Assembly: GCA_024614665.1 (NCBI GenBank)
Contig: GCA_024614665.1_4861.1
Source of the DNA: a phage
Length of the DNA: 64,000 nt
Strand: one strand, 5' to 3'
Shown: positions 1,560-55,714 of the stretch, piece after piece
How the letters are laid out: every line of letters begins with the position of its first letter
Position numbering within the stretch: the stretch's first letter is position 1
Position numbers and translations under genes: made by a program
The notes under the pieces: generated by a model
What the model saw: the letters and a program-made list of their open reading frames with translations, nothing else
What the model was told of the DNA's origin: nothing
Database searches by the model: none

Positions 1560-2897
1560 GATACGCAGCGAACACTGGTTAACATCGGTAACAACTTCGT
1601 CGATGAACAGCGTCTGAATAGACAACTGTACCAGCGTTGGGTTACGTAGCGGTATAACCATGATCCCAAGACCGCCTGGGGATTCACGAATCAGTTCTTT
1701 AAAGATTTCGTCTACAAGCGGGTCATACTGCATTGCCGCTTTTGCGACGATACGTTCACACTGCCGCGACGAATAACCCCGGCGTAGCAGTTTGTTCTCG
1801 ATGTGGGTCGACATCAACCCAACCATCCAACGCCATGGTGCTTTTAACTTCCAGGCATCGTGTGGTTCTGAGATAGGTGAGATGGTTGCACGACCACCGA
1901 ACGGAATATGGGTGGAACCCAATTTCGCACGATAGTCACCCGGTTTACCTTCCATAGACTCACGACGGAAGTCCATGTGGAAGTACGTTAACTGACGGTT
2001 CGCTTTCAAAGCGCGACTAATCAGAAAACGCGGTTCGATCGCTTTACGCCGCGTATAAAGTAACGCGATATTTTTCACCGCATCAATAGCACCCGTGAAC
2101 ACTGGGTCTACCATGACACCACGACGACCTTCCTCAGTAACGATAAGTTTAGAGGAGATTAGCGGTAAGTGTCTTGGGAAGAATGCATGGCGTTGCGTTT
2201 CGAATAGCTCCTTCCATTGTAAACGTAAGCGTTCGCCTTCAGCGGCGTTATGCCGATTAGGTGCGAAGATTTCCTTCCAGGCTTCTGGCGTGGTAAGGAT
2301 GTTAAAGATACTAACGTGGTTATCAACCAGATTGCGCAAGCCACGAACGAAACCATGTTCTTCCAATACACGTTTCACAGCATGTGCGCGTTTACCGTCT
2401 GGTTCTTCTATAAGGTAATACGGGTCAATCATCCACATCATCAAGTCATTACCGCGTTCGATAGTGACCTTGTTACGTTCAAACTTCTTCAACTTGCTAT
2501 TAAAGAAAGCATTGAACATTGCCCAGAATCGTGGGTTGACGAAGTTACCCATTTCATCAGGTGCACGTAACCATACATCGGATTCAATTCGATGTTCAGT
2601 TACAACATAGCCACACGTCGGACACTTACAACCGAGATTGTAACGATGCGCGATCGGTGCCGGACAATCCAAACTACAAATCGGTGCAGAGTTCAGTTCT
2701 TCGTCAACGATTCTGTTCTGTACCATGCGATCGATAAGTTCAGCAACCTCGATCGCATCCCCGTTAACAGCGACATCGTTAATAATAGTGGGTGGTTTAA
2801 TACCTTTGGCAGCAGCTTCTATTTGCAAATCGGACAAATAGTTATCCTGACTAACCAACCGGCCGGATATTCCGTAGAATTTTGGTACCTTTCTCAC
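1560..2897 (-). CDS. RNA polymerase beta-prime-like N-terminal module, exon 1; 3' boundary approximate
   Basis: Cys cluster CSLDCPAPIAHRYNLGCKCPTCG (Zn-finger-like); GKPGDYRAKLGSTHIPFGGRATISP matches region B ([27 protein letters not shown]); VIPLRNPTLVQLSIQTLF matches region C (VLLNRAPTLHRLGIQAF); ORF track extends it to 1395 but the last ~55-65 codons are intronic read-through. Confidence 0.65.
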
Positions 2898-17526: not shown

Positions 17527-17606
17527 GGGCGAGCAAACGGACGGATTCGAACCGTCGAAATATCCGATTATGAGTCGGGTGTTAATTCCTCTAACTTCGC
17601 TGCTCT
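17527..17606 (-). pseudogene. tRNA-like element (degenerate): T-arm GACGG-TTCGAAT-CCGTC and anticodon-arm-like CCGA-CUCAUAA-UCGG (CAU), but no pairable acceptor stem
   Basis: Hand folding of minus strand; anticodon loop identical to elongator tRNA-Met loops; acceptor stem cannot be formed and the variable region is 6 nt. Confidence 0.35.
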
Positions 17607-17675
17607 TGCTTTGACCGGTCTCGAACCGGCGACCTTCCTCAAAGAGGTTGCTCTACCTACCTGAGCTACAAAGCC
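17607..17675 (-). pseudogene. tRNA-like element (degenerate): canonical acceptor, D-arm and T-arm but anticodon arm shortened by about 4 nt
   Basis: Minus strand GGCTTTG-TA-GCTCAGGTAGGTAGAGC...GCCGG-TTCGAGA-CCGGT-CAAAGCA; only 13 nt where a 17-nt anticodon arm is expected; G1-A72 mismatch. Confidence 0.35.
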
Positions 17676-18757: not shown

Positions 18758-18833
18758 TGGCGGGGGCACGAGGTTTCGAACCTCGAACCTTCGGTTTTGG
18801 AGACCGGTGCGCTACCAATTGCGCCATACCCCC
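18758..18833 (-). tRNA. tRNA-Trp (anticodon CCA), 76 nt, CCA encoded
   Basis: Hand-folded cloverleaf on minus strand: acceptor GGGGGTA/TGCCCCC, D-arm GCGC-AATTGGTA-GCGC, anticodon arm CCGGT-CUCCAAA-ACCGA (as in E. coli tRNA-Trp except a C27-A43 mismatch), T-arm CGAGG-TTCGAAA-CCTCG, discriminator G, CCA. Confidence 0.8.
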
Positions 18834-39308: not shown

Positions 39309-40112
39309 TTACCAGCTCCTTACACCCATGCCCATTACCCGCAGATTGGACACTTTCGGAGCCAGCTGCAGGTATTCCTGCGCGAGTTGCTGGAGAGCAC
39401 CACGACGGGACTCAGTGGCAACAGCGCTGGTCGTTGTCGGATTGTACAGAATGTCTTCCAACACTTGACGACTGATAGGGCGGTCGACGTAAGTGCGAGT
39501 AGATTCCTGTGCCACTTTACTACCGCGTTGAATCGCAGAGTATTTGTTACAGATTTGCAGGCCATCTTCAATAACCCAGTCAAAGGTGACCAGTTTATCG
39601 ATACGGCGTACGATAGTCGTACCCAGACGACCTTCACGAACGATAGCACGCAGTGAGAAACACACGTTCTGATGTGGGTTCTCTAGTGCTTCCGCCAGAA
39701 GCGGACCACGTTCACGGTTAGGTTTAATCCAACCCCAGATTTCCATTACCGGCAGACCGTTACACATCTGGTCGGTCGGCTTCACTTCTACTTCGCGAAT
39801 GTGCATACACACGTTACGCGTTTCGATCCATTCGTTACGTTCGATCCACTGGGCTTCGCTCATGCCTTGTTCGTATTGCGGATGGTCTTCTTCACCGAAG
39901 AGATTCCCCGCCAAAACTTTACGCATGAAAACGTTAGAGCGCTCGAAGACATGTTTTGACTCGTTATAGGCGTAGTAAATATTCTCAGAGTTGAAAATAT
40001 TCAGTGCACCTAACAGGACGTAGTAATACCCGTCCGCATCTTTCTTTAGCGTTGCCCCTTTATTGACCCCAGCGAGTGCCACGCAGTTATAACGTAGTGA
40101 CAAGTTTTCCAT
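39309..40112 (-). CDS. hypothetical protein (267 aa)
   Basis: ORF track. Confidence 0.5.
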   Translation of the reverse strand: MENLSLRYNCVALAGVNKGATLKKDADGYYYVLLGALNIFNSENIYYAYNESKHVFERSNVFMRKVLAGNLFGEEDHPQYEQGMSEAQWIERNEWIETRNVCMHIREVEVKPTDQMCNGLPVMEIWGWIKPNRERGPLLAEALENPHQNVCFSLRAIVREGRLGTTIVRRIDKLVTFDWVIEDGLQICNKYSAIQRGSKVAQESTRTYVDRPISRQVLEDILYNPTTTSAVATESRRGALQQLAQEYLQLAPKVSNLRVMGMGVRSW

Positions 40113-40174: not shown

Positions 40175-40903
40175 TTACCTCATATACAAATCCTCGAGTG
40201 GCTCTGCACGTACCGGATCGACCTGGAGTGCAGAACGGATACCCTGTTTCAGCTCCACATCTGCAATCTTGGCCAACCTGGAAGTTTTGTTCAATGAACC
40301 TGAACGCAGCGGAATAAACTGCACCCGATTCATCAAATCGCTGTCTTTTTTCAGGGTGTAGCGGAAATACGTCCGCGGGTCGCCAACCTTACGCTGTGTG
40401 TGGGCAGCATAACAGTCAGCGGTGATCTGGTCGTTAAAGACCGTAAAGCCGTTCCACGTCTTAGTGTCAGACAATAGCTCAGCGTCATCTACTGCGGTAT
40501 ACCAGAAAGGCCGGTTGCCGAAGTCGTAGATGTACGAAGCGATGTTGTAGACTGGCGAGGATAGCACTTGCAGCATTCGGTTGGGGAACACCACCGTGCC
40601 GGGGTCAAAACGGAACTCGTAATACGGCACACCCTGAACATCAATTTCCTCAAACGCCGACGGGGTAATTTCAATGAACGTCGTGACGTTCGATACCCCG
40701 TAGGTTTTGCGGTCAGTGGAGATAGCGAAAATACCGACGATTTCTACTTGCGAAGAAATTACCGCCAGCTCTTTAGCCACGAAGCCAACAGGGATGTAAA
40801 TGTAACATCCCCCTTTGGTGATGGTGGCCGTGCCTTGGTCCACTAAATCTGCATGAATTTTCGTCGCGTCACGACGTGCTGTTTCAATGGCGCTCACGAC
40901 CAC
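40175..40903 (-). CDS. hypothetical protein (242 aa)
   Basis: ORF track. Confidence 0.5.
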   Translation of the reverse strand: MVVSAIETARRDATKIHADLVDQGTATITKGGCYIYIPVGFVAKELAVISSQVEIVGIFAISTDRKTYGVSNVTTFIEITPSAFEEIDVQGVPYYEFRFDPGTVVFPNRMLQVLSSPVYNIASYIYDFGNRPFWYTAVDDAELLSDTKTWNGFTVFNDQITADCYAAHTQRKVGDPRTYFRYTLKKDSDLMNRVQFIPLRSGSLNKTSRLAKIADVELKQGIRSALQVDPVRAEPLEDLYMR

Positions 40904-40912
40904 CTCTCTTTA

Positions 40913-42388
40913 TTAAACTTTGCTCGGTACAGAAATAACCACACCGCCACAAATCCAATCCAGAACGTAGTTAATCATCCAGTCGGTCGCTACCTCGTCA
41001 GGTTGACGGTTAGCAATCATACCACGATGAATATCCAGCATCAGCTTGGACAGCTCGTACTCACCAAAGACTTCGGTTGCTGAGACTTTGATAACGAACT
41101 CTGTGATGTCGGTGGTGTCGGTGGTGAAGAACTCGTCGATGAAGCTCGCCGTCGAACGCTTAATGAGTTCTGGCGTTGCTACCTGACCGTCTTCTCCACG
41201 CCAGAACAGTTCAGGATCGGTTGCATCGATGGCCACGTTAAACGCTTGTTTCAGTGACTGGCGATTGCGTGTTACCCAATTGCTATCGAGCTTAGCACGC
41301 TGAATCGCGGAACGGTGGCTCCAGGCAGCGATGTAGTCTTTCTGTTTTTCCAACAGTGAAGCTACACGCGTGGAGACATTGGTGTCACCTTCGTCCAGTT
41401 GGTAAATAGCGCCCAGTAACGCTTCAACGCTACCGCCTTTTTCCAGATAGTCATCCATAACTTCCTGGCAGATATACACTTTCTTCTCAACGTTGTCGTA
41501 TCCGAAGACAATGTTACCGGTCTTGATGCGGGTAACGATGTTCTGGGTGTAGGCGTAAACCCAGCCGATATAGCTGTAATGCAATGGCAGCATCTGTGCT
41601 TTCCACTGCCCGCTATTCAGACCAGAGTCTTTCCACGGCATTTCCAGGTAGTAGCCAGAAAGCAGCATAAACAGAATGTTGCGTTTCAGGTTGTGTGGTG
41701 CCTGGTCGCTTACCGGAGAGAGCATGTTCCCTTCGAGCATGGTGCGAACGGCTTCGTTGATGCTCCAACCCAGAGCATTCAGCAGTTCTTTAACCAGATC
41801 GTCGTAAGCTTTGCTGCCGGTTTCTGGCAGTTCGATATCAGCAGGGACGTTAGCTTTAACCGCGGGATGTGTGGTACCGTTACCCAGCGGGTTCTCTACC
41901 GAATCAATTAATGCTTGTACCACCGGGGAGTTCAACGCCGGGTCCATACCTGCCGGTACGAGTGCCCACTCTTCGCTAACTGCCTGGTTTTCAATACCCT
42001 GGTTGTTTTGGATGACCAGCTGAACAAACGGCTGAATAACGTTACGGGCAAAGTCAAGCATACCCTGACAACGCTGGATGGCCATGCGCTTCAGTTCAAA
42101 CAGCGTTGGTTCGTGGTCTTCGACGTTCAGCGTTTCTGGACCCGCTGCCGTATCCGCGATTACAGACGCTTCGCCCGTGCCAGCTTGCGGCGTTTTCAGT
42201 GCAGTGATATCCGGCAGAGACTGGAAGAACTCTTCGTCAGTTATCTGCGTATCGAAAACGCTCTGCTGCGTAGTCGCTTTTGTCAGTAGACCAACAGGAC
42301 TGTCAACGTCAGCTTCCAAACGAATCTGGTGTTGTTTCGCCAGTTTCATTGCGTTGGTGACAGCATTAAGTGAATATAAGTTGATCAT
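40913..42388 (-). CDS. hypothetical protein (491 aa)
   Basis: ORF track. Confidence 0.55.
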   Translation of the reverse strand: MINLYSLNAVTNAMKLAKQHQIRLEADVDSPVGLLTKATTQQSVFDTQITDEEFFQSLPDITALKTPQAGTGEASVIADTAAGPETLNVEDHEPTLFELKRMAIQRCQGMLDFARNVIQPFVQLVIQNNQGIENQAVSEEWALVPAGMDPALNSPVVQALIDSVENPLGNGTTHPAVKANVPADIELPETGSKAYDDLVKELLNALGWSINEAVRTMLEGNMLSPVSDQAPHNLKRNILFMLLSGYYLEMPWKDSGLNSGQWKAQMLPLHYSYIGWVYAYTQNIVTRIKTGNIVFGYDNVEKKVYICQEVMDDYLEKGGSVEALLGAIYQLDEGDTNVSTRVASLLEKQKDYIAAWSHRSAIQRAKLDSNWVTRNRQSLKQAFNVAIDATDPELFWRGEDGQVATPELIKRSTASFIDEFFTTDTTDITEFVIKVSATEVFGEYELSKLMLDIHRGMIANRQPDEVATDWMINYVLDWICGGVVISVPSKV

Positions 42389-42678
42389 GCCTGACCCCCG
42401 TTTTTGGTGCTGATGGAATCCTGGATGCGACCAGTAATGCGCGCACCCACCATATCAGCGATGTCTCGTTTCAGCAAACGCTGATCGCCCATGCGGTCAG
42501 ACAGGCCATTGCTGCCCTTCAGCAGTCCGTGAATAATTTCGGTGGCCAATTCAACCGCATTGCCCAGAACAACAAAGTTCATGCGTTGCTGTGGGGAATA
42601 ACCTTCCGTTTCCGGATTCGTGCTATTACGACCCACCGGAATCCCATGCTGCTGCTTGAGCGTATCTAAAATTCCCAT
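42385..42678 (-). CDS. hypothetical protein (97 aa)
   Basis: ORF track; ATGA overlap with downstream gene. Confidence 0.45.
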   Translation of the reverse strand: MGILDTLKQQHGIPVGRNSTNPETEGYSPQQRMNFVVLGNAVELATEIIHGLLKGSNGLSDRMGDQRLLKRDIADMVGARITGRIQDSISTKNGGQA

Positions 42679-42725: not shown

Positions 42726-45700
42726 TTAGTTGATTTTAGCCGGCAAGGCTGGGACGTCTTCACCATCTAAGATGCGTCCGATGTTCTCCCCACCACGATA
42801 CCCGACAGCGTTGGTGGTTCCGATGCGCATGATAGAACCTACGATACGTGCGTCGACGGAATCACGACCAAAGATAATGTCGAGTTCCTGCCCGTCTTCC
42901 GTTTTGTTGGTTCCATACATCACTTCCTGAACCGTCGTTTTCAGCTGGTTAGCAATAACCATCTTATCCGCTGCTGCCATCTCTACCCGGTGTGTGATGT
43001 AGAATCGGACACACAGGCTATTGTACGCTAACGGCACCCCCTCAACACGAAAATCACCGTTGACTCGACCGTCCTTCGGCTCGTCACGTTTGAGAGCCAG
43101 CGCAGTCTTCCGACGTATACGGTCGTATTTACGAACCATCTCCGCCAAAGACGGGGTCATATCTTCCAACTCGCCGTGGTAAACCACTTCGATTTTGTCG
43201 ATAAACCCACGAACACCAGAGCGTGGTGCAAAGGAGCTTAACTCACGCAGCGTCTCCGCTGCTTCTTTACTGAACCCGCTCATATCGCCAGTCAGGTTGT
43301 CGGTGAAGGTGCATAGAATTGAATCCACGTCTACGTGGTCCCCTTCTTTTACCATCTCCAACAGGTTCTGGGTGAATGTCATTGTGACTTCTTTGAGTTT
43401 GGTAACATCGGCTTCGGCCTTAGCAGCGAACCGCTCACTAATGGCGTTGGAGTCCTCAATTACTTCTTCCCCTTCAATCAAAGCGACAGTTGCCAGTATC
43501 CCGTTTTTAAAACTGACCTGCGTTGGATCATAGATGTCTGGTTCAAAGTGTTGTTCGTTGTACGTGATAACGGCACCGGCAGGGAGTTTATCTCCGCGCT
43601 TCCATTTCGTTACCAGGGTGTGTGGGTAGTAAGTCCCTTCGTGCGGACCGAACCAACGACCCAGTGGGAAAGCTTCTTCCTCCCCGTCGTCGTATTTGAT
43701 TTTAACGTGGTCGTTAAGAACCTCCACAATCTTGCCAGGTTTATCGATTACGCGTGCGTGCTTCACAGAAGTACGGTGTGCCACGAACTTTTCTTGCTCG
43801 GTACGATACGGTGTGGTGGTTGCGCCAACACAACTGGTCGCAGAACCGAATTGAATCCCAACGAAGTTCTGACGCTTAGCATCGTCCATCAGGGTATCCG
43901 GCACCAAGCCATCAATAAACGACAGCGCCTCACCCGGCTTCAGTTTATCGAGGTCCTTTTTAAAGGTCGTGCCGTCCACGGTATCGTAGCGCGGGTTGTT
44001 TGTTGCAAAGGCGGTGATACCTACGTCGCCGTTATCGACCGTGTTACCGGAGACAATCCCCAGGTCGCTCGGTTGGAATTCACGGGTACTGTAGACCATG
44101 GTTTTGCGGTTACGACCGCCTGTACCGCCCATGGTAACGACATCCTTTTCTTTGATGTTCTGTACCGGGTTTGCGCCAGGTGCCAGCAAAACAGACGGGT
44201 CGGAGTTAATTGCACCCCACACCATGTCCTGTGTCAGCTCAAACTTACGATTCGAGTTAGGCGCGTTGTTGTAGTTACGCATCGCCCGCACCATCGCGGT
44301 GTAGATGTGATACGAAATACGTTGGTTCCCGATGAACATCATTTCGTCACCGTTAATTTCCGGTAACGTGTGGTCCGTCTGCAGCAGTTCGTTAGAACGC
44401 TCCAGTAAGCCGATAAAGGTTTCCGGCTCGCCCATTTTCCTGAGGATACGCGCGTGCATGTCGTCAACAAATGCGGTCCGCATCAGCTTCAGCTCTTTGA
44501 TGTAGCGTGGTGTTAGCCCATCTGCATCGCGTAACAGGTTCAGGTAAATGTCTTCCCGGTCAACTTCCGACTCGGTATACGTGGTAAAGTGTTTAATGTA
44601 ACGGTCTAAGCCGTTGACAATCATCCTCTGTTGATCGTTCTCGCAGACAATTGCAATTTTCGCATCCTGGAGACGAATAATGGAGTCGAACTGACCTTTA
44701 TCGATACGTTGTCCGACAGAGAGAACCTCGTAACTGATACCGAAGTGTTTCAACATCCCGGTTAATCCGAGATAGTACGCAAACACAAAGCCCAGCGAGA
44801 TTGATTTACCCATCAGTGACAATTCAGTCATTTCACGTGGAGCCTTAGCGGTGTCCACGCCAAAGACTTCGGCGAGTGTACCCAGTGGTTCGGTCTTATC
44901 CTTATCCACTCGATAGAGCTGGGAGTTTTTATCCATACCGACGATGACATGACTCCGCGGTTTCTTCGCCACAGGTACCAGCTCGACACGGTCCGCATCT
45001 GCCAGTTGCCCTTCGTTAAAGAATACCGCTTTCTGTTTAATGTCAAAGTTCCATTGGTACCCAATTGCGTTGAACGTTGCTACACGACGCGCTACTTCGG
45101 TATATTGGCGCGGCAGTTTAGACAGCGGATCGAACACATTCGCCAGTTTTGCATCAGTGATTTCGGTGTTCTTTGGATCGACTGCACGAGTAATAATCGC
45201 GTTAGTGAGCCAACGTCCGTAATCATTGACGACTTTATCGCTGCGACGGACAAAGTTCTTCCCGTAGGCAGTGGTTAACGCTACAGTATCGTGGGACACT
45301 TTACGGATAGGAACATCGACGCGCTGACGACGCATTGTATATTCCACACCATTTGCAACCCAAGTACCGTCTTCGGTTAATGCAGGAATTGAGAAACGTA
45401 CCGTGGTTGGTTCTCCGCCAATCGGCTGAATACGCAACGTGTGGTGTTCGATATTCCCGGTAACGGAAATCTCTTTCTCAACAGTGTGATTGTGAATCGC
45501 CAAACCGAGACGCTGAGATGACGCCACTGCACCCAGAACATCTTTCGGGAAGATTTCCTGGTTGTACTGACGAATGATTTGGTCGGTGGTATTTTCCGCC
45601 CAGGCTTCATCCGTAACTAAGCGTTCAATCTTCTTAGGCTCGGCTTTAACTTCGAGTTTCTTCGGATCAATGGTCAGACCTTCGCCGTACGTCTCTTTAG

Positions 45701-46931
45701 GATTGTACGGGTTGGGTAAGTTTACGAAACGTTTAGAAGATTCGTTCAGGAACTGATACGCTTTGGCGGTGACGCGGCCCGCTTCTGCCAGACGCTCAAC
45801 TTCCTGTTTAATCACAGCATCGTGTGGGATGGTGCGTTCTACGACGATGGTGGTTGGTTTGACATCTTCTTTCGGCGCTTCGATGACCAGATCTTCTTTC
45901 TCATCGAACTCATGATCGTTCAATGTGTCGTCGGCGTTGTCGCTTTGTGTTGCTTCATCGTCGACGATATCGAGGGTTTCTTCCGGTTTACTGGCAACGG
46001 TATCAACAGCATCGTCGTCCTCACCCAGATGTACGCGTTCGTCCCCTTCCGGTGTAACGAACTCGTCATCTTCGTAGTCGGTAGACGGCGGTGTGGTCAT
46101 CACAGTAGTCAGTGTACGGTAGAACATTCTGCCCATCTGCACGTCAGTCAAACGACCACCGGCAGACTTACGCATTCTTTCAATTACACCCATGTTCATG
46201 GATGTAAAACCACCGTTGTGCGTGAAGATAAAGTTCACACGTGACAGCTGGTTCATGTCCATACCGTCAAACAGGGTTGCTTGCTGATCGCCGTAAGCCC
46301 AACCGAACAGTTCCAGTAACCACAGGAGATTAAAGTCCTTAAAGCGCTCCAGTTTGGTTTTAACACGATCGTTATACGTCGTTTTAAAACGATCGAAAGA
46401 AGGCAGTACGTTACCCAGTTCGATGATGTAGTAGTTCTGACGCATGTACTCACGTGAGTCAGTTTTCATCTGGTTAGTTATCAGCAGCTGAATGTTGTGC
46501 AGACGTTCGTACCAGGACATCAGAGTATCAGGGTAGAAATAATGCGGCAGCATCGGGGTGTAGTTTTCGATGAGCAGCACTTTTGGATCGGAACGTACCA
46601 CGCCGTCTTCAATCATGCGACGAATACGACGGTTGTTACGATGGTACTGGAAGATTTGACGTTCTTGGCCAACAACCGGTTTCTTACGCGGATGGCCGAT
46701 AATGCCGTCTTCAGGCAGCTGGAAGTGGTGGCGAATCATCGCCGGTTTTTCCAGCTGGCCAAAACACGGTGTAGTTAACGGCGGCGCTAAAACCACCTGG
46801 TCTAAATCGATGGTGTGGTAGATAGAACCACGTGGGAGCTGGAGCTTCTCCAGCGGGATAATACGCGGGCGACCGAACTCATCGGTCTTGCGCACGGTAA
46901 AGCGCTGGTTAAACTGTTTCAGAAAAATCAT
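42726..46931 (-). CDS. multisubunit RNA polymerase beta-like subunit (1401 aa; N-terminal/central module with long acidic insertion)
   Basis: TMGGTGGRNRKTMVYSTREFQPSDLGIVSGNTVDNGDVGITAF resembles the bacterial beta Rif-region segment [44 protein letters not shown]; C-terminal GEMEVWAL-type region not present; adjacent to beta-prime N module. Confidence 0.55.
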   Translation of the reverse strand: MIFLKQFNQRFTVRKTDEFGRPRIIPLEKLQLPRGSIYHTIDLDQVVLAPPLTTPCFGQLEKPAMIRHHFQLPEDGIIGHPRKKPVVGQERQIFQYHRNNRRIRRMIEDGVVRSDPKVLLIENYTPMLPHYFYPDTLMSWYERLHNIQLLITNQMKTDSREYMRQNYYIIELGNVLPSFDRFKTTYNDRVKTKLERFKDFNLLWLLELFGWAYGDQQATLFDGMDMNQLSRVNFIFTHNGGFTSMNMGVIERMRKSAGGRLTDVQMGRMFYRTLTTVMTTPPSTDYEDDEFVTPEGDERVHLGEDDDAVDTVASKPEETLDIVDDEATQSDNADDTLNDHEFDEKEDLVIEAPKEDVKPTTIVVERTIPHDAVIKQEVERLAEAGRVTAKAYQFLNESSKRFVNLPNPYNPKETYGEGLTIDPKKLEVKAEPKKIERLVTDEAWAENTTDQIIRQYNQEIFPKDVLGAVASSQRLGLAIHNHTVEKEISVTGNIEHHTLRIQPIGGEPTTVRFSIPALTEDGTWVANGVEYTMRRQRVDVPIRKVSHDTVALTTAYGKNFVRRSDKVVNDYGRWLTNAIITRAVDPKNTEITDAKLANVFDPLSKLPRQYTEVARRVATFNAIGYQWNFDIKQKAVFFNEGQLADADRVELVPVAKKPRSHVIVGMDKNSQLYRVDKDKTEPLGTLAEVFGVDTAKAPREMTELSLMGKSISLGFVFAYYLGLTGMLKHFGISYEVLSVGQRIDKGQFDSIIRLQDAKIAIVCENDQQRMIVNGLDRYIKHFTTYTESEVDREDIYLNLLRDADGLTPRYIKELKLMRTAFVDDMHARILRKMGEPETFIGLLERSNELLQTDHTLPEINGDEMMFIGNQRISYHIYTAMVRAMRNYNNAPNSNRKFELTQDMVWGAINSDPSVLLAPGANPVQNIKEKDVVTMGGTGGRNRKTMVYSTREFQPSDLGIVSGNTVDNGDVGITAFATNNPRYDTVDGTTFKKDLDKLKPGEALSFIDGLVPDTLMDDAKRQNFVGIQFGSATSCVGATTTPYRTEQEKFVAHRTSVKHARVIDKPGKIVEVLNDHVKIKYDDGEEEAFPLGRWFGPHEGTYYPHTLVTKWKRGDKLPAGAVITYNEQHFEPDIYDPTQVSFKNGILATVALIEGEEVIEDSNAISERFAAKAEADVTKLKEVTMTFTQNLLEMVKEGDHVDVDSILCTFTDNLTGDMSGFSKEAAETLRELSSFAPRSGVRGFIDKIEVVYHGELEDMTPSLAEMVRKYDRIRRKTALALKRDEPKDGRVNGDFRVEGVPLAYNSLCVRFYITHRVEMAAADKMVIANQLKTTVQEVMYGTNKTEDGQELDIIFGRDSVDARIVGSIMRIGTTNAVGYRGGENIGRILDGEDVPALPAKIN

Positions 46932-46949
46932 ACATGTGCCTTATGGGTA

Positions 46950-48563
46950 TCATTTCAACAGCGCAGCAGTCGTTCTTTTAATCACGTTGTTAACCGGATT
47001 GATTTTGAAACTGCCGTCTGTTGCAAACCAGTAGTTTTTCGAACTGACCCACTTCCGATTTTCCTCGAGCGCTTCGGTTGACATCGGGCAGTTTGCTGAG
47101 CCGGTGTCACCATCGTAGTCACCACCCAATCCACCTAATCGGGATGGATGTGGTGCCATGGATTCCACAAAGGTTTTCACGGTACGGTCAGGGAAGCTAA
47201 TTGCACCCTTCTCTTTTAACGTGACCCAATCGTCTTCCAGTTCATGCAAATAGAGGGAAGAGGTGGTGGTCTCCAATCTTATGGTCGAGGAGTAAGTCGA
47301 ACCGCGTCCCGTAACCGGATAACGCGTGATGAACGAGAAGTAGTCATTCCAAATATCGTAACCTGACAAATAGAGGAGTTCTGCTAAGCTCAGTCCGCGG
47401 ACAAGCTTACGGTCACGTCCTTCCGGCAGGTCTTCAATATCGTAAAAGATTTTGAAGCTGCGTTTGTCCTGGTAGATTAATGCCACGTAATGGTCCGGAT
47501 CAATCATCAGCGGTTTATGTCGAAGCTCGCGCGCTTCCATTCTGTTGATGAGTGTTTCGATGCCATCGTCGGTAGTGAAAAGGTCATACACCCGCCCGGA
47601 GACTTCCAGGAACTCACGCTTGAGTGTTTTGGTGTTAACGCCGTATAAGTTGCCGTCCCCTGCCCGGATGTTACTGAGGTAACGTTCACGGATGTGGTAT
47701 TGAGCCACAGGCAGTAATGCCTTCAGGGTTTGGTACAAACCGATACGGGTATCCGTTGGACGAATCGCATCTTCGCGACCCATGACCTTGGAACCGGTTG
47801 AGAATGAAGACAGTACGTTACGCGTACCGTTCATTAACTTACGTGACGTCACTTTACGACGTGCAAAACCACCTTTACCGTCTTGGATGTTGAAAAAGTA
47901 CATCCAGATGTCATTAAAGGTTTGTTGGAGCTTCCAGCGAACCGGGTCAGTCAGTTCCGTTCGCGTACTGCGGTCGGGGATTGCACGTGCCAGAGAAATC
48001 AGACGGCGGTAGAGTCCGCCAATCTCTTCTTCTTGGTCGCGGCCATCCTGACGAATGACCAAATCACGTAATCCCGCAGGCAGAACCAGCACATAGCGGC
48101 TGAGACTGACCGGACGGAACTTATTGAAGAAATCGACTGTCTCGTCGCGACGCATTGATTCGTTGCGTCCTGGCGTCAGTTGTTCGTAGTAGCGTAGGAA
48201 GAAGTTGAAGCCGGTGTCTGCACCTTTATCACTGGGCAGAGCCGGCTCGAAATCTTTTTCTTTCTCATTCCAGATAGCGAATCGCTTCCCGGAACAGATT
48301 TCTTCGTACAGCTGTTTCAGCTGGAACAGTGCCAAACAAACGGTCGGCGAAATGATATCCAGTTTGATATCAATGTACGAGAACGTTGAGTCTCGTGCCT
48401 CGCTCCCTGTGAGGCCAAATATTTCAGTTGAATACAGTCCTTCAGGGTGAAAGTTTTTCGTCAGTCCCTGAAAGGTGTCTGTTGTTGTAACTGGTTTTAA
48501 ATGCGACACCAGGGACTTGTTGACGTTTAACAGGTAAAAGTCAACCCAGTTTAGCTTTCTCAC
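46950..48563 (-). CDS. multisubunit RNA polymerase beta-prime-like N-terminal module (537 aa; paralog with DYDGD)
   Basis: [35 protein letters not shown] matches [67 protein letters not shown] matches region B; [13 protein letters not shown] matches region C; GGDYDGD matches NADFDGD; no Zn-finger cysteines. Confidence 0.7.
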   Translation of the reverse strand: [537 protein letters not shown]

Positions 48564-48592
48564 TTTTAAGCTCCTGAATTGGAAGAAACATT

Positions 48593-51500
48593 ATGGCAAA
48601 AAGAGGCAAAGACGGTTTCGATGATATCGACTTAGATAGACTCGATGACTGGGATGATTTCGGTGAACCACCCCGTCCCAAAGACGAGAAAAAACGAAGC
48701 CCGATACTTAGTACCCTGAATGTTGCCAGGAAGTCGGCGTTGTCAACTATCTGGCCAGAAGGGAAACGCGACCAAGTTATCCTCAAGGGGATGCCTAAGC
48801 CGGCAGCTGATGCATACGAGGGCTATCAGTCAGCGGCAGCTGCAGCAAAGGATATTTACGCCCATACGAAAGGGGAGCTTGAGAAGACCGAGCGCACGCT
48901 GAAGATGCAAGCGCGCCAACTCGGTCCGACGATGAAGAAATACTTGCCTGATGCGGTTACTAAGCGCATCGACAAGTGGTCAAAATCTGACCAGTTGGAT
49001 TACCAAAATTACGATCCTAATCAGGCGTTGATGGATCGTGAACTGGGCGACGTTTTCTCAGGTGTGCCAAAGGACGCCGAAGAACAACGTCAGCTGCAGG
49101 ACAGCATGGTAGAGGATAAGCTCCGCGACAGCATCAAAGAGATGCGTGCGGATGCAATGCACCAAACCATGATTGGGATGGCGAAAGACATTAACCTGCT
49201 AACCGGGTTAAGCCGCGGGGTATTCTTAAACATCGAGCGTAAGAAACTCGAACTGCAATACCGTACCCTGTTTGCCATCCAAGACATCGTGAAGATGAAG
49301 CAGTCGGAGTTCGATCGTAATACGCCTGCTTTAGAAGCCATCGTGAAGAACACGGCATTGCCGGATTACGCGAAGGAAGATTTCTCAGAAGTCCGTTGGG
49401 CGAACGTTAAACGCCAGGCTGCGGAATGGATGAACCCGTTGCGGTATGCTGACGGGTTTATGGACATGATTCGCGAAAATACCAAGAAGAAAATTTCTGG
49501 TATATTTGGCGAAGGTCGCGGTTTGTTAGAATCTGTTCTCGGCATGGGCGTTGAAGATGATTTCGGCATGAGCGACAGCTCTTCGTTGACTGCTGAACGT
49601 CGCAAAACAAATGCTCGCGATAAAGCAACTGCATGGGGTAGCGGATTCCTTGCGAAGAAACTACTCGGTCCACAAATCGAGAAACTCCAGAAATGGACTC
49701 GCGAGGAGATGGAGAAAAATCCAGAGGTCATGAAACGCCTGCAGAAGGGCGCGTTCACCTTTGGTAATCTTTCCTCCATCTCGAACTCAGCCATCGCAGG
49801 CGAAACGCAAGGACCGTTGGCGGATTTGTTCCGGGTGCTGAATGAACTCGGTATTGTCCAACCGTTAAACCGTGAGAAAGCCTTCCTTGACGAACGTAAT
49901 GGCGAAACGTTAAGCCGTTCGGCGAAATTTGACCGTAAAGCATATCTTAGCCTGGTTGAAGTTATTCCTGCCTGGCTGGCAGAGATTAACAAATCTGTTC
50001 GTCGGGGTTATGGCGAACATGCCGACCTGGAATACGACATCACTAGTCGTGGGTTCGTAGACCGTAAAGTGGTCGGTAACCGCGTACGCAAGGCGGTTGC
50101 AAACGATGAACAACGCCTGCGTCTCCAAAATTCCATTAACAGCACTGTGGATTTTGTTGACCGCGGCAAAACGCTCTCGCAGAAGGATCGACAGCATCTC
50201 GCCGACTATATCGAGTCGCGAGCCTCGCAGGGCCGCGCATTCGACGTAGAAGCGATTCTGAAAGACCCGATGCATCTTCATCGGTATATGCCAGGAAACT
50301 CCGCAGAACGCATTAAGGAAGCCTTACAGGGGCATTCTGATAGCCTAACCGGTGGTAGTAACGAATTAAGTAACGAACTGGCTCGTAAAATCTCCACAGT
50401 ACAATCGTCTATCACCCAGCGTCAGGCAGTTATTGACGAAGCGGTGAACATTTACGGCGAACGTGCGCTGCGTGATGCAGGTATATTCAACTACGACGCA
50501 AAGAGTGACACCTTCGGCGTAGATAAAGACCTCTCCGATCCCTACACCTTGTTTAATGACTTGGCGATGGGTAAGACACGCAGTGGTCGTGCACTGACTC
50601 GTGACCAGGAGATTCAACGTAAACTGCAAAACGGTTCAGCGTTAGGCGACTACTTGCGCCGGATGAACCAAGGGGCAAATGGTGGTGTCGATGACACGTC
50701 GTTGCCGCCGGCTTTACGTGGCGGTGGTAAAGGCCGCGGAATGTCGCCTCGGCAGTTAGCCGCAGTTCTCTACGGTGAAACCTCGACTAACTTTGTTGAA
50801 TTGTTGAGTCAACGTAACCGCGGCGAAGAAGCACCACGGAATAACTTTGACGGCATCATCGAAGCGATTCGGGGTAATAACAACAGTGACACCCTCCAGA
50901 AAATTCTGGAACACGTCAGAAGTATGGACGAAGAAGGGGTTCTCCTGGCTTCGTTAGCAGGGGGTGCTGGTTCTGGTGACGAAGAGATGGGACCACCTCG
51001 TCCTGGTGGTGGTAGCGGTGGCGGTAAACGCCGCCGTATTATCATCGGTGAGGATGGGCTTATTCGTCGTTGGGGCGGTGTGTTGTTCGACACTGCAGCA
51101 GGAATCGGTGGCTTTGCAAAACGTGGTGTTAAAGGTGCCTGGAATAAACTGAATCAGTTCGGTGGCTGGGCACGCGGTAAAATCGCAGGGATGGGCGGCG
51201 GAGAAGGTCCTGGTTTCTTAACCCGGATGCGTGGCCTTATCAGCGGTAGTGTCCGTGGGGGCTTTGAAGCGGTAAGTTCCTTCGGTAAAGGACTACTGGG
51301 TATCCGCGACATTTACGATGACCACGGTAATGTTGTTCTGCAAGGTGCACGTCTGGAAGCTGGAGAATACTACCAGGTCATTGATGGTAAAATGGTTCAG
51401 CTGAAAACGCTGGACGACATCAAACTGGGGAGTGATATTGTTGACTCCGCAGGTAATCTGGTATTAGCAGCCGCTGACTTAGCCGCTGCGGGTAAACTCC

Positions 51501-54500
51501 GCTACTATAAAGGCGGGAAAATCCAAGCACTGACCCAAGGTCTGGCCAGTAAGATTGGCTTAGGCTTTAATAAAGTGGCTAAGCTACCGAAACGGTTCCT
51601 GGATTTCCTGTCGCCAAAAGCGGGCAGCATCGTTGGTAAGATTAAGGACTGGCTGAACGAGATTCCGGAAGGCGAAGAAAAGACACGTCTCCAGAAAGCG
51701 TTCAACCGCGTAACGAGCTTACCGGGTAAAGTGCTCGGTTTTGCGAAACGTGGTGTCGACCGTCTGAAAGACATGATTACCGACAACCCACTGACGCGTT
51801 GGTGGAAAGGCCGTAAAGATGGTGGGGGAGGTGGTTTCAGTCTCTTCTCATCGACCGGCAAGAAAACCAACCACATTCTTATCCGTATCTACAAACTGTT
51901 GAACCAACGTTTACCGGGTGATCCGGAAGACGAAAGTTGGACAGAAGAAATGGAGAAGGGTGTCGGTGGCGGTGGTAGTACGATCGGCCGTGCAGTTCGC
52001 GGGGCGTATAATCGTGCGAAAGCGTCATTGTCTGAACGTTTTGGTGGACGTTGGTCAAGAACAAAAGCGTTCTTTGGTCGTGGACGTGACCGCCTGCGTG
52101 GTTGGTTCAGTGGTTTCCGAGGCCGGGCTGGGGATATGCTCGATGGATATCGTGGAGCACGACACGACATTGCTACACGTTACGAAGTTGAACGTCGGTT
52201 GGCTGGACGTGATGATGATGTTGCTGAGTTTTATCGCAGTCATTTGAACGCGAAAGGTGGCCTTTCTGGCCGTAAAGTCTACGGTGATGCGAAGGAAGAC
52301 CTTGAGACCGCCCGTGATGCAGCAGGGAGAGTTATTAACAAAGGGAAGAATGCTGCCAAGTCTGCAGGTGCAAGATTGTTTGAACGCTTGGACCGAATGA
52401 TTGGCTTGCAAGAGATGTCGTGGTTTAACACCATGCGCGAATCAGTATCCCGTGCAGGTGGTGACGATGGCATTATTCGTACCATGTTTGCGAAGTTCGG
52501 TAAACGTAACAAGCCGCCTGAAGGTGATGAAAAACGCGACTACTTTAACTTCTTCAAACGTTGGCGTGAGAAACGTAAGGAGAAGAAAGAGAAAGCGCAG
52601 GGCTCCAAAGGGAAATCTGGCGGTCTGTGGGATATGGTGAAAGGCTTACCTATCATCGGTCCCATCGTCAGTATCTTGGGAACTGTGGGTAATATACTCG
52701 GTTCTATCACGAAATGGGGTGTGTTAAAACCCGTAGGCCTTTTAGGGAAGGCTGCGTGGAATGTTGGTAAGTTCGCAGTAACCCGCTTGGCGGCACCCGC
52801 GGTGTCCGCTGTGGCAACTGCGGCATCTGCCGTCGTGACCGCGGTGGGTTGGCCGGCAATTCTCATCGGTGGTGCGATCGCCGCGGCAGGTTACGCCGCG
52901 TACAAAATCGCAACGACTACCTATACCCAGTACCTGGATAAGATGCGTTTAGCTCAGTACGGTTTCCGTGATTACGATAAGTGGTCGTCGGACGACGGGG
53001 CGAAAGCGCGTTACTTAGAAGACGCATTGCGTGAGTATGTGTCTTACGCGGAAGATGGCCAAGCCAGTCTCCGTGGGCTAAGTGGAAAAGACGTTCAGAA
53101 GTTAGCTGAAGGATTCGGTATCAACGTTGAGGAAAAAGGCGAGATGTTGGCCTTCCAAGCGTTTATGCTTCAGCGCTTCATTCCGATTTATCTCCGTTGG
53201 ATTACGGCACTGAAATCAATGCCGAACAGTATCCAGTTGGCTGACGTCGGCGATGCGAAGAAAGTATCGAAAGAGGACATGCAGACACTCTTCAACAAAA
53301 TGAAGATGACTAAGGATGCAAAAGCGTTCTCTTCGTTAACTGACCCACGCAAAGTCAACCAAGGTTTCTTCTCGAAAGCTTGGGACGTTGTAACCTTTAC
53401 ACCGAAGGAGTTTTTGAGCGGTGAAGAGGTTATGGAAGTGCAGAATGAAGTCGAGCGTGCGATCAAGTTCAGAATGGACGATAAGAAAGCACGTAAGTAC
53501 GGAATGGCACCGGCCGTGGAGGGGATTAAATCCGCTGGCGTTGATGAAGCTATCAACAAACTCGGACAGCTGGATAACGAACGTAACAAAAATCTGGCGA
53601 AGGTAGAAGGTTGGGAAGACGGAACAGAGCAGGTTCAGATTCAGGTAGACTGGAATGCGGTGCTCGACCAGAAAGACATGAATGCGATGGAGTCGGTACG
53701 TTGGAAGACTTATGGTTTTACCACCATCGATAACGCCACTCGCACCATGATCACGGTATTCGAGAAGAACGTCATTAAGGACATTGACGTGAAAACCGCA
53801 AGCTACAAAGGAGATTGGAAGAAAGCAATCGCCTCGATGGTTCCAGACGCTATCGGTACACCGAAAGAAGATCGTTTGAAACGGTGGTTCTTTGACCGTT
53901 TCTTACCGGTATTCATGACGTATTTGGTTGGGGTGAAGCGTTACCTGCCAACAGCCGATCCGCTGAACTTGAAACTGACCGGCGGCTACCTGTACGAAAT
54001 CAGTCTGATGATGTCAACAGCCTACAGCTTGAAAGGCGGTATAAGACAGTCGGTGTGGGAAGTGAATATCAACCCATTAGGGGGTGAGGCTAACACGAAC
54101 CCATCGTCCATCAAAGCCGAACTGGAAACGCTGAAGCTGCTGTCAAAAGAAGCTGACCTTGCCGTGCGTAACATGATCAAAGCCATTAAAAATAATGGCA
54201 AGCGTGCACGCTGGAAGGATCGTAACAAGAACCGCAGTTCTCTGGAAGTCACCGGTGAAGATGATGAAGACTCGAACATCAGTTCGGGAGATTCTTTGTC
54301 ATCCGACGGTGCTCGCGCCTCAGGTTATATCCCAACGGGTACAAGCGGTGGCGTACCGGGTAACTTAGGCCAAGTCGTCGATGCGGTTGGTGGTGTGCGG
54401 AACTACGCTGCAATGACCACGGGTTCGTCTTCGATTAACCTGAGTGATGTGAAAGACGGTGATTATAAGTCACTGGCTGAAAAATACCCGATAGAAATGT

Positions 54501-55714
54501 TGGGTAGAAAGGGTGCGTTGAACGTTCCAAATATCAAAGCACTGATTACCGATGCAGCGAACATGATGGGCGTGCCACCTGCAGTGGCGTTAGCAATGGC
54601 TAAGGCGGAGTCTGGATTTAACTACACCGCTAAAAACCCGTATGCTTCGGCGTCTGGGTTGTTCCAGTTTGTTAACGGTACGTGGGACGGGATGATGAAG
54701 GGGTATTCGCGGAAGTTCGGTATTCCGCGTGTTAACCAGATGGACCCGTGGGCGAATGCTATATTGGGTGTACAGTTCATTCGTGACAACATCCAACAAG
54801 CACAACGTGACCTGGGTGGTAAAGCACCACCTCCAGCCGTGGCTTATTTGTATCACTTCCTGGGTGCAGGCGGCGGTAAGAAATTCCTGGAAGCATGGAA
54901 GCGTAATCCGAATATGGCGGCATCAAGTGCTCCTGGGATTACATCTGCAATACTGAGAGGGAATGCCAACGTCTTCTACAGCAACGGTCGTATACGTAGC
55001 GTAGACGGGGTTATTCAGGAACTGAACCGCCGCATGGGCGCAATTTCCGCCAACGAAGTCGCTGCCGATCCGAGTAAGACGAAGGATATGGTTGCAGGCT
55101 TGTCGCCTAATTCACCAACCAACCCGGCAGCAGCAATGGGTGCACCGGCCGCTAATGATCCGAGTCTGTCGCCAGCAGATAACCTGCCGGCAGATAATGC
55201 TAATCGTCGTGATGACGCATTGACGCAGAAAGGGGCCATGGCGGCACAAGATGCAATGGCTACCGCCGCAGGTAATGTAGGACCAGCAGCACCTACACCA
55301 ACTACAGGTGGTTCCGGAACATCCGATGCCTCAACAACAGCCGAAACCGTAGCGTCGCAAGCTGCAGCAGAAGGATTGTCTGCAACGGATGTTGCTAAAG
55401 TGAAAGCAGGCGCGGAAGCGCAGGTTAACGCAGCAGCTCGTCCAGTTGCCGCTCCAACTTCTGATGCTACAGCATCGACGCCAACGCTGAATGGTGACCC
55501 GATAGATGTTCAGCAGCTCAAGGTACTGATTCAGTCTCGCGATTACTTGAAAGAGATTCGTGATATTTTGAAATCAAATCCGAGAGCAGCAAACGACACG
55601 CGTGGTGGTAGTATCCAGCAAGCGGCAAATGTGGCTCCTCCGGGCTCAGCTGCACGCAGGCAGGAAATAACCCAACCGACACCGTCGTTAAACGTAAGTC
55701 GGAAAGCAAGCTAA
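48593..55714 (+). CDS. giant virion-associated protein (2373 aa) with lytic transglycosylase domain
   Basis: SLT-type motif AMAKAESGFNYTAKNPYASASGLFQFVNGTWDGM at about 54560..54900; multiple Gly-rich linkers, Arg/Gly-rich segment, long hydrophobic segment, Ala/Pro/Thr-rich C-terminus; AGGAG-like RBS. Confidence 0.7.
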   Translation: MAKRGKDGFDDIDLDRLDDWDDFGEPPRPKDEKKRSPILSTLNVARKSALSTIWPEGKRDQVILKGMPKPAADAYEGYQSAAAAAKDIYAHTKGELEKTERTLKMQARQLGPTMKKYLPDAVTKRIDKWSKSDQLDYQNYDPNQALMDRELGDVFSGVPKDAEEQRQLQDSMVEDKLRDSIKEMRADAMHQTMIGMAKDINLLTGLSRGVFLNIERKKLELQYRTLFAIQDIVKMKQSEFDRNTPALEAIVKNTALPDYAKEDFSEVRWANVKRQAAEWMNPLRYADGFMDMIRENTKKKISGIFGEGRGLLESVLGMGVEDDFGMSDSSSLTAERRKTNARDKATAWGSGFLAKKLLGPQIEKLQKWTREEMEKNPEVMKRLQKGAFTFGNLSSISNSAIAGETQGPLADLFRVLNELGIVQPLNREKAFLDERNGETLSRSAKFDRKAYLSLVEVIPAWLAEINKSVRRGYGEHADLEYDITSRGFVDRKVVGNRVRKAVANDEQRLRLQNSINSTVDFVDRGKTLSQKDRQHLADYIESRASQGRAFDVEAILKDPMHLHRYMPGNSAERIKEALQGHSDSLTGGSNELSNELARKISTVQSSITQRQAVIDEAVNIYGERALRDAGIFNYDAKSDTFGVDKDLSDPYTLFNDLAMGKTRSGRALTRDQEIQRKLQNGSALGDYLRRMNQGANGGVDDTSLPPALRGGGKGRGMSPRQLAAVLYGETSTNFVELLSQRNRGEEAPRNNFDGIIEAIRGNNNSDTLQKILEHVRSMDEEGVLLASLAGGAGSGDEEMGPPRPGGGSGGGKRRRIIIGEDGLIRRWGGVLFDTAAGIGGFAKRGVKGAWNKLNQFGGWARGKIAGMGGGEGPGFLTRMRGLISGSVRGGFEAVSSFGKGLLGIRDIYDDHGNVVLQGARLEAGEYYQVIDGKMVQLKTLDDIKLGSDIVDSAGNLVLAAADLAAAGKLRYYKGGKIQALTQGLASKIGLGFNKVAKLPKRFLDFLSPKAGSIVGKIKDWLNEIPEGEEKTRLQKAFNRVTSLPGKVLGFAKRGVDRLKDMITDNPLTRWWKGRKDGGGGGFSLFSSTGKKTNHILIRIYKLLNQRLPGDPEDESWTEEMEKGVGGGGSTIGRAVRGAYNRAKASLSERFGGRWSRTKAFFGRGRDRLRGWFSGFRGRAGDMLDGYRGARHDIATRYEVERRLAGRDDDVAEFYRSHLNAKGGLSGRKVYGDAKEDLETARDAAGRVINKGKNAAKSAGARLFERLDRMIGLQEMSWFNTMRESVSRAGGDDGIIRTMFAKFGKRNKPPEGDEKRDYFNFFKRWREKRKEKKEKAQGSKGKSGGLWDMVKGLPIIGPIVSILGTVGNILGSITKWGVLKPVGLLGKAAWNVGKFAVTRLAAPAVSAVATAASAVVTAVGWPAILIGGAIAAAGYAAYKIATTTYTQYLDKMRLAQYGFRDYDKWSSDDGAKARYLEDALREYVSYAEDGQASLRGLSGKDVQKLAEGFGINVEEKGEMLAFQAFMLQRFIPIYLRWITALKSMPNSIQLADVGDAKKVSKEDMQTLFNKMKMTKDAKAFSSLTDPRKVNQGFFSKAWDVVTFTPKEFLSGEEVMEVQNEVERAIKFRMDDKKARKYGMAPAVEGIKSAGVDEAINKLGQLDNERNKNLAKVEGWEDGTEQVQIQVDWNAVLDQKDMNAMESVRWKTYGFTTIDNATRTMITVFEKNVIKDIDVKTASYKGDWKKAIASMVPDAIGTPKEDRLKRWFFDRFLPVFMTYLVGVKRYLPTADPLNLKLTGGYLYEISLMMSTAYSLKGGIRQSVWEVNINPLGGEANTNPSSIKAELETLKLLSKEADLAVRNMIKAIKNNGKRARWKDRNKNRSSLEVTGEDDEDSNISSGDSLSSDGARASGYIPTGTSGGVPGNLGQVVDAVGGVRNYAAMTTGSSSINLSDVKDGDYKSLAEKYPIEMLGRKGALNVPNIKALITDAANMMGVPPAVALAMAKAESGFNYTAKNPYASASGLFQFVNGTWDGMMKGYSRKFGIPRVNQMDPWANAILGVQFIRDNIQQAQRDLGGKAPPPAVAYLYHFLGAGGGKKFLEAWKRNPNMAASSAPGITSAILRGNANVFYSNGRIRSVDGVIQELNRRMGAISANEVAADPSKTKDMVAGLSPNSPTNPAAAMGAPAANDPSLSPADNLPADNANRRDDALTQKGAMAAQDAMATAAGNVGPAAPTPTTGGSGTSDASTTAETVASQAAAEGLSATDVAKVKAGAEAQVNAAARPVAAPTSDATASTPTLNGDPIDVQQLKVLIQSRDYLKEIRDILKSNPRAANDTRGGSIQQAANVAPPGSAARRQEITQPTPSLNVSRKAS

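Follow-up and report, generated by a model that had tools for sequence, protein, structure and literature searches.

Jumbo phages related to phiKZ encode two multisubunit RNA polymerases (RNAPs) of their own, one of which is injected from the virion, so that the genome can be transcribed without the host enzyme. This two-RNAP strategy is already established for SPN3US, phiKZ, 201phi2-1 and AR9, and work on phiKZ has shown that the non-virion RNAP (nvRNAP) transcribes the late genes. To our knowledge, host-type promoters are not used by SPN3US-like and phiKZ-related phages. The virion RNAP (vRNAP) of SPN3US is made up of gp240 (beta'N), gp241 (betaN), gp244 (beta'C), gp42 (beta'M) and gp218 (betaC). 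Mass spectrometry detected gp240 and gp241 in SPN3US heads (Thomas et al. 2016, PMC5105663; Ali et al. 2017, PMC5694885), gp244 was assigned to the enzyme through the proteomics of amber mutants (PMC5105663, PMC5694885), and particles of 241(am11), 218(am101) and 244(am84) are devoid of all five subunits and non-viable (PMC5105663, PMC5694885). The vRNAP is ejected along with the phage DNA (PMC5105663) and, in phiKZ, ~10 copies of gp180 are present per virion (PMC10612078). The published genetics and proteomics concern the proteins of SPN3US, which is another isolate than the phage analysed here (PMC5105663, PMC5694885).

The window studied here, a 64,000-nucleotide stretch of phage DNA, is assigned to an SPN3US-like (Seoulvirus) jumbo phage by its ~99% DNA identity to Salmonella phage SPN3US; nucleotide comparison gave 99.2% for the whole finding. 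The first-pass annotation had placed ORFs of 1401, 537 and 2373 aa side by side, and all three are found, at 42726..46931 (minus strand), 46950..48563 (minus strand) and 48593..55714 (plus strand), respectively. The 537-aa and 1401-aa ORFs almost certainly encode two of the five vRNAP subunits of a jumbo phage that resembles SPN3US and belongs to the phiKZ-related group. The same genes make up the SPN3US vRNAP: the 537-aa protein is identical to gp240 (537/537 aa, 100%) and the 1401-aa protein nearly so to gp241 (1395/1401, 99.6%). The neighbours (the gp239 tape measure protein and gp242-gp245), their order and their strands are likewise all the same. Compared with SPN3US, the window phage has six substitutions in the N-terminal part of gp241, one extra residue in its gp239-like protein and a group I intron in the gp23 gene, which SPN3US lacks. 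The finding is sound but unexceptional, given that genetics and virion proteomics have already covered identical or almost identical proteins. The vRNAP genes were already known and no novel reading survives for the genes themselves, of which the window contributes one more near-identical copy; novelty at the strain level is limited to the mobile intron.

The 537-aa ORF had been described as an intact beta'N with a DYDGD motif and no Zn finger, and this description holds. DYDGD is found at aa 482-486 (nt 47106..47120; DYDGD(T) at aa 482-487), and in a 30-sequence alignment of the gp240 family D482 is invariant and D484 and D486 are nearly so. The protein has just three dispersed Cys residues (76, 90 and 492) and no column of the 30-sequence alignment is mostly Cys, so that a Cys-type Zn finger is absent. 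It belongs over its full length to phrog_2986, a jumbo-phage RNAP family (E 2.9e-238), and shares ~34% identity with its Phikzvirus orthologue across 94% of its length. Searches with the single sequence were not significant, with no Pfam family at E up to 0.1 and only a sub-threshold match to the catalytic loop by phmmer against the PDB (E 0.39); the protein is therefore recognised as RNAP through profiles, structure prediction and PHROGs. The gp240 family profile matched the AR9 beta' chain 7s01_d in the PDB at 8.9e-13, and bacterial and plastid beta' chains at 1e-7 to 1e-10. The AlphaFold2 (AF2) model of the protein (pLDDT 81) also had 7s01_d as its top Foldseek match (E 5.9e-16), and the best 50 matches were all RNAP beta'/gamma-type large-subunit chains. 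In this model the catalytic loop itself is of low confidence (pLDDT <50 at 480-485). The protein is almost certainly the N-terminal piece of beta'. Its Mg-binding DYDGD loop sits in a predicted double-psi beta-barrel, and the N-terminal Zn-binding domain has been lost. Its ORF starts with GTG, preceded by AGGAG 7 nt upstream. A shorter gp240 of 519 aa is given in Table 5 of PMC5105663. This alternative start was rejected and the length of 537 aa retained because homologues are conserved from residue 1 onward and AGGAG precedes the GTG.

The 1401-aa protein, described in the first-pass annotation as beta-like, is a member of phrog_3148, again a jumbo-phage RNAP family (E = 0). No Pfam family was found for it at E up to 0.1, and a single-sequence phmmer search against the PDB returned noise. 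With the gp241 profile, a match to Thermus thermophilus beta (1iw7_C) was obtained at 2.8e-8, made up of four colinear segments that span beta residues 118-880; the first of these begins at profile position 505, or roughly aa 500. The beta-homologous part, supported by profile, AF2 and PHROGs, corresponds to aa 451-1401 of this gp241 homologue and phiKZ gp178 orthologue (42726..45581, minus strand). The AF2 model of this part (pLDDT 79.4, pTM 0.74) had 8w8o_C as its best Foldseek match (E 7.6e-25, TMq 0.51), and almost all of the matches listed were bacterial beta. A conserved 'DD..KR' stretch lies at aa 1016-1020. PHROGs, profiles and AlphaFold/Foldseek thus agree with the proposal that the locus encodes a second multisubunit RNAP of the phiKZ type, built from split beta and beta' pieces.

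The remaining aa 1-450 (45582..46931, minus strand) form an N-terminal extension without detectable beta homology; before about aa 500, gp241 gave no PDB or Pfam match. An acidic low-complexity linker is located at about aa 285-355 of the extension, and all six residues that differ from SPN3US are located at aa 184-333, in this non-RNAP part. An extension of roughly 400 residues has already been described for SPN3US gp241, where it was proposed to guide the enzyme, once assembled, into the prohead (PMC5105663). In the window phage, the extension of roughly 400-450 aa appears non-RNAP-like and may serve in head targeting. SPN3US gp241 is not processed, in contrast to the beta subunit of 201phi2-1, from which an N-terminal propeptide is removed (PMC5694885).

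Could the pair instead be a decayed, non-catalytic RNAP relic, retained only for a structural role in the head or for ejection? The absence of a Cys cluster from the 537-aa protein, the change from F to Y in its catalytic loop (DYDGD, against a family consensus of DFDGD) and an N-terminus of beta that is not RNAP-like may be taken as marks of decay, and the very low sequence identity to cellular beta' in the Foldseek alignments (12-14%), the lack of Pfam matches for both proteins and the disturbed capsid assembly on loss of phiKZ gp178 (PMC11620839) are in line with such a view. We nevertheless consider it very improbable, as the three metal-loop Asp residues and many beta/beta' core positions are invariant or nearly invariant among diverged homologues, and members of the gp240 family occur in 324 phage records. 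The AR9 nvRNAP beta' likewise has DYDGD. Furthermore, SPN3US particles without the vRNAP have an intact appearance and yet are non-viable (PMC5694885), and the SPN3US protein identical in sequence to the 537-aa protein is functional.

The vRNAP has five subunits, and in this respect the earlier description of a second RNAP module was right about beta and beta'N but incomplete, because it missed the gp244 homologue (40175..40903, minus strand). This protein of the phiKZ gp176 family is 240/240 identical to gp244, matches phrog_2926 ('virion structural protein', 1.3e-94) and is the candidate beta'C, the fifth vRNAP subunit. The genes for gp218 and gp42 were not found in the window; SPN3US coordinates place gp218 at 189.8-190.4 kb, and both lie outside. 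The beta gene is separated from the gp244 homologue by two genes of the same strand block (40913..42678), the homologues of gp242 (42385..42678, minus strand; PHROG match and SPN3US annotation) and gp243 (40913..42388, minus strand; 488/491 identical to SPN3US gp243), the latter a head assembly or ejection protein according to PMC5694885. The last gene of this syntenic head-gene block encodes the prohead protease (39309..40112, minus strand), of the SPN3US gp245 and phiKZ gp175 family (Pfam Peptidase_S80, 1e-84; 267/267 identical to gp245).

On the other side, the 537-aa ORF is head-to-head with the 2373-aa ORF (48593..55714, plus strand), their start codons being 29 bp apart, and the SLT domain noticed in the first-pass annotation is real: PF01464 matches aa 1984-2072 (nt 54542..54808) with 37.4 bits against a cut-off of 21.3 (2.1e-9). 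The protein is phrog_3201 (E = 0) and shares 2361 identical residues with gp239, than which it is one residue longer. gp239 has been named the 259-kDa tape measure protein (PMC5694885). Pfam, PHROGs and sequence identity therefore all assign the 2373-aa protein to the tape measure family of SPN3US gp239 and phiKZ gp181, with a predicted cell-wall-digesting SLT lytic transglycosylase domain. The tape measure is a separate virion component, and adjoins the RNAP genes only via conserved gene order. The order SLT tape measure, divergent beta'N, beta, gp176/gp244-like gene and protease is the same in SPN3US and in Phikzvirus KEN49, and matches gp181/gp180/gp178/gp176/gp175 of phiKZ. In phiKZ, gp180 and gp178 lie beside gp181 in the same divergent arrangement, with the same downstream genes for a gp176-like protein and a gp175-like protease. 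The DxDGD loop of the phiKZ vRNAP is likewise in the small subunit, and that enzyme too is packaged and ejected, although the phiKZ-type proteins have a slightly greater length (550 and 1451 aa) and beta'N identity is only about 34%. For annotation, which is where the practical value lies, the 537-aa, 1401-aa and 242-aa ORFs can be named vRNAP beta'N, beta(N) and beta'C candidate, respectively, and the 2373-aa ORF tape measure protein with SLT domain.

Experiments on SPN3US and phiKZ suggest how the encoded enzyme would act. The five subunits would assemble in the infected cell and enter the prohead as a complex. The N-terminal part of beta that is not RNAP-like may direct this complex to the head. 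Once ejected, the vRNAP would transcribe early phage genes independently of host RNAP; its subunits might cross the tail in a non-native state. We found no evidence contradicting the vRNAP reading in this analysis.

Split beta/beta' subunits are also a feature of the nvRNAPs of phiKZ (7OGP) and AR9 (7S00/7S01), which have the same architecture without alpha or omega homologues, and among solved structures it is AR9 beta'N that the 537-aa protein matches best. However, these enzymes are a different, paralogous set that is unpackaged and serves late-gene transcription. In the split beta' of cyanobacteria and plastids (gamma/RpoC1 + RpoC2), the break also comes after the catalytic loop and the N-terminal half is similar in size; such chains rank high in both the Foldseek and the profile matches of the 537-aa protein. 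Unlike the vRNAP of the window phage, the cyanobacterial and plastid enzymes keep the Zn-binding domain, need alpha, omega and sigma and have no virion role.

A second beta'N gene, split by an intron, had been reported at 946..2897 (minus strand) with a Cys cluster and DFDGDQ, and we find both features. Exon 1 (1530..2897, minus strand) contains C74, C78, C90, C92 and C95, and exon 2 (946..1173, minus strand) opens with DFDGDQ. The spliced protein of 531 aa is identical to SPN3US gp23 at 530 positions, with DFDGDQ at aa 457, and the intron-split protein matches the phiKZ nvRNAP chain 7ogp_A (gp55) at 2.1e-38 by phmmer. We thus assign the split gene as nvRNAP beta'N, a true orthologue of phiKZ gp55, and it should be annotated as such after joining across the intron. 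This nvRNAP beta'N keeps the Cys cluster, unlike the 537-aa protein. The two beta'N proteins had been called paralogous, and each of them does match beta' separately; compared directly they are barely alike (BLASTP E 0.32), and hhalign of the gp240 family profile with the single nvRNAP sequence aligned only a GKxG..R..R segment (E 0.011, probability 3.7%). As the direct comparison is nearly uninformative, we infer a common beta' origin through cellular beta', and the probable paralogy of the two proteins follows from their separate matches to cellular or phage beta'.

Which of the two sets is packaged had been regarded as open, but the detection of gp240 and gp241 in SPN3US heads (PMC5105663, PMC5694885) had already answered this question. 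Reversed roles, with the gp240/gp241-like pair as the non-virion (late) RNAP and the intron-split paralog in the packaged enzyme, have nothing in their favour beyond the fact that sequence alone would permit either assignment, and are refuted by published virion proteomics of identical proteins, given that the 537-aa protein is identical to the gp240 found in heads by mass spectrometry (PMC5105663, PMC5694885), that its phiKZ orthologue gp180 occurs in virions (PMC10612078) and that the intron-split protein matches a chain of a solved nvRNAP. The presence of both sets within 64 kb had also been singled out; this proximity is unremarkable because the ends of the SPN3US record are arbitrary and the window spans them.

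The intron in the nvRNAP beta'N gene is a 356-nt group I intron without an endonuclease ORF (1174..1529, minus strand), matched by the Rfam covariance model RF00028 with 65.5 bits against a cut-off of 50. Its boundaries were set by comparison with the intron-less SPN3US allele, which is without exactly this segment. The intron follows a Gly codon (GGT) and precedes the codon for the first Asp of DFDGDQ. Exon 1 ends in ...GGT, which puts a U ahead of the 5' splice site, and the intron closes with ...CAG, giving it a terminal G. Removal of the predicted intron restores the 531-aa ORF. SPN3US, SEGD1 and the SPFM phages do not have this intron. The ORF-less form is also found in several phages ~98% identical to the window phage, and in Proteus phage 7 the intron at this position includes a gene for an HNH/NUMOD1 endonuclease. 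Homing with interference competition has been shown for PhiPA3 gp210 at the vRNAP beta gene. It is conceivable, though on balance unlikely, that members of the present intron family home actively when Seoulvirus phages infect the same cell, and that they mediate such competition at the nvRNAP gene.

Two of the virion RNA polymerase (vRNAP) genes of this phage lie in a block of three large genes, and ORF listing confirmed the positions of all three: a 1401-aa gp241-like protein (42726..46931, minus strand), a 537-aa gp240-like protein (46950..48563, minus strand) and a 2373-aa gp239-like protein (48593..55714, plus strand), numbered after their SPN3US counterparts. By megablast, the whole 42726-48563 region is 99.2% identical in DNA to three Seoulvirus genomes (Salmonella phage SPN3US, SEGD1 and Proteus phage 7), and the window's initial 5 kb aligns with where those genomes begin. 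The window is a stretch of an SPN3US-like genome in reverse complement, running over the point at which the SPN3US record was arbitrarily opened. At the protein level, identity to SPN3US was 1395/1401 for gp241 and 537/537 for gp240, with 2361 identical residues for gp239; the homologues of gp244 and gp245 show no differences from SPN3US, and that of gp243 matches at 488/491. The gp240-like and gp239-like genes are arranged head-to-head with 29 bp (48564..48592) between their divergent start codons, so the promoter of each must lie within or beyond the coding sequence of the other. An AGGAG motif is found 7 nt upstream of the GTG start of the gp240-like gene.

The first-pass annotation read this locus as a second, divergent RNA polymerase (RNAP) module and left open which polymerase is packaged, a question that published work on these very proteins has settled. 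Thomas et al. 2016 (PMC5105663) assigned gp241 as betaN, gp218 as betaC, gp240 as beta'N, gp42 as beta'M and gp244 as the beta'C candidate, and detected all five vRNAP subunits in SPN3US heads by mass spectrometry. All five were lost when the mutant 241(am11) was grown under non-permissive conditions (PMC5105663), and the same loss was reported for 218(am101) and 244(am84) by Ali et al. 2017 (PMC5694885), whose particles looked intact yet were non-viable. The latter study also found that gp241 does not undergo proteolytic processing and identified gp239 as the 259-kDa tape measure protein (PMC5694885). In phiKZ, each virion contains about 10 copies of gp180 (the DFDGD subunit), and this protein co-precipitates with gp178, gp80 and gp149 (PMC10612078); gp178 is the phiKZ vRNAP beta subunit (PMC11620839). 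Such a module is thus known already, and experiments have characterised it in a phage almost the same as this one.

Our profile and fold analyses, which address the refuting conditions set in the first-pass annotation, likewise support the interpretation as an RNAP module. The 1401-aa protein falls over its full length in the jumbo-phage 'RNA polymerase beta subunit' family of PHROGs (E = 0), and its profile of 23 members matched T. thermophilus beta (2.8e-8), the alignment falling into four colinear pieces that together span beta residues 118-880. Using Foldseek, a model of aa 451-1401 (pLDDT 79, pTM 0.74) matched bacterial beta at 7.6e-25 with a TMq of 0.51. Before about aa 500, no relative was detected in PDB, Pfam or family-profile searches. 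All six substitutions relative to SPN3US gp241 fall at aa 184-333 (45933..46382), within the N-terminal extension and acidic linker that lack RNAP homology, and the beta core is identical.

The 537-aa protein is also placed at full length in the PHROGs jumbo-phage 'RNA polymerase beta subunit' family (E 2.9e-238). Its family profile, built from 30 diverse homologues, gave E-values of 8.9e-13 with the beta' chain of the AR9 non-virion RNAP and of 1e-10 to 1e-7 with beta' from plastids, cyanobacteria and bacteria, and the top Foldseek matches of its AlphaFold model (pLDDT 81) were beta' N-terminal halves (7s01_d, 5.9e-16). The protein carries DYDGDT at aa 482-487. Because it has only three scattered Cys, and the 30-member family alignment contains no mostly-Cys column, the proposed absence of a Zn finger is borne out. 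Pfam scans matched neither protein to a family, single-sequence searches of both against PDB returned nothing significant, and no vRNAP-type chain was found among their PDB sequence or Foldseek matches. The beta'N family is present in 324 phage records from many hosts. A record of the identical beta'N protein (P0001) comes from a contig of 241,679 bp filed under Salmonella enterica serovar Enteritidis, and further close relatives are likewise labelled as Salmonella proteins; bacterial assemblies therefore contain complete jumbo-phage genomes. Several SPFM phage RNAP entries (P0101, P0102, P0104, P0155, P0156, P0158) gave very strong HMMER scores but BLASTP coverage of only 3-12%, a mismatch which suggests frameshifted or error-rich gene models.

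Gene order across the vRNAP neighbourhood is equal to that of a Phikzvirus genome, where a 2236-aa 'tail fiber' protein (the gp181 homologue, by position) is followed divergently by the genes for beta'N (550 aa) and beta (1451 aa), then by two ORFs without names, a virion protein of 240 aa and the protease for head maturation. The corresponding order here is gp239-like, divergently gp240-like, gp241-like, gp242-like, gp243-like and gp244-like (40175..40903) and a Peptidase_S80 protease (39309..40112); the divergent gap is 75 bp in a Phikzvirus and 29 bp here. Going by SPN3US coordinates, the window does not include gp218 or gp42. The SLT domain noted in the 2373-aa protein scored above the Pfam gathering score (aa 1984-2072); this protein does not belong to the polymerase, and its place beside the RNAP genes reflects a gene order that is conserved. 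It is a tail component and would digest peptidoglycan during infection. As work on identical or orthologous proteins has shown, the split vRNAP subunits would assemble, enter the prohead as a complex, leave it together with the DNA on ejection and transcribe early genes independently of host RNAP. The non-RNAP N-terminus of beta may be the head-targeting part, and the enzyme would presumably have to unfold for passage through the tail tube.

The sole strain-specific feature is an intron in the beta'N gene of the non-virion RNAP (nvRNAP; 946..2897, minus strand). Rfam placed a group I intron at 1228..1537 (minus strand; 65.5 bits, cut-off 50), and alignment with SPN3US gp23, which has no intron, set its limits at 1174..1529 (356 nt), with exon 1 ending AAC GGT, the intron ending ACAG and exon 2 starting GAT TTC GAT GGT GAC CAG. 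The predicted spliced product of 531 aa is 530/531 identical to gp23, ends at 946 and contains both the Cys cluster and the DFDGDQ motif, in agreement with the first-pass annotation. Its match at 2.1e-38 to gp55, chain A in the solved structure of the phiKZ non-virion RNAP, identifies it as the beta'N of the non-virion enzyme. Compared directly, the two beta'N proteins showed marginal similarity, and their kinship as read from sequence rests on separate matches of each to beta'. A 500-aa ORF (1395..2897, minus strand) runs past the 5' splice site through 44 intron codons (1395..1529) to a stop; unspliced mRNA would therefore yield a beta'N cut just before the catalytic DFDGD loop.

SPN3US, SEGD1 and the SPFM phages lack the intron; this phage and SPLA3, JN03, EC001, SPLA5c, 1252 and Lh1B have it without an ORF, so that its presence varies among Seoulvirus genomes about 98-99% identical. 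Proteus phage 7 has a 1404-nt intron at the identical site (after GGT and before GAT of DFDGD), which carries an HNH/NUMOD1 endonuclease ORF and has a ribozyme core 77% identical to ours; SaP7 has a similar-sized insertion. Judged by this distribution, the intron appears to be mobile. RNAP-gene introns in jumbo phages and their part in phage competition are already documented (PMC11620839).

Elsewhere in the window, Rfam and ARAGORN identified a tRNA-Trp (anticodon CCA) at about 18758..18833 (minus strand). Two adjacent weak tRNA-like Rfam matches at 17532..17675 (minus strand; 38.1 and 30.6 bits) had no ARAGORN call; the equivalent part of the SPN3US record carries a single 'tRNA-OTHER' annotation. 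The 759-aa protein at 6779..9058 (minus strand), whose SPN3US homologue gp18 is annotated merely as hypothetical, matched the Pfam 'Divergent Family B DNA polymerase' (PF20286) at 4.6e-284.
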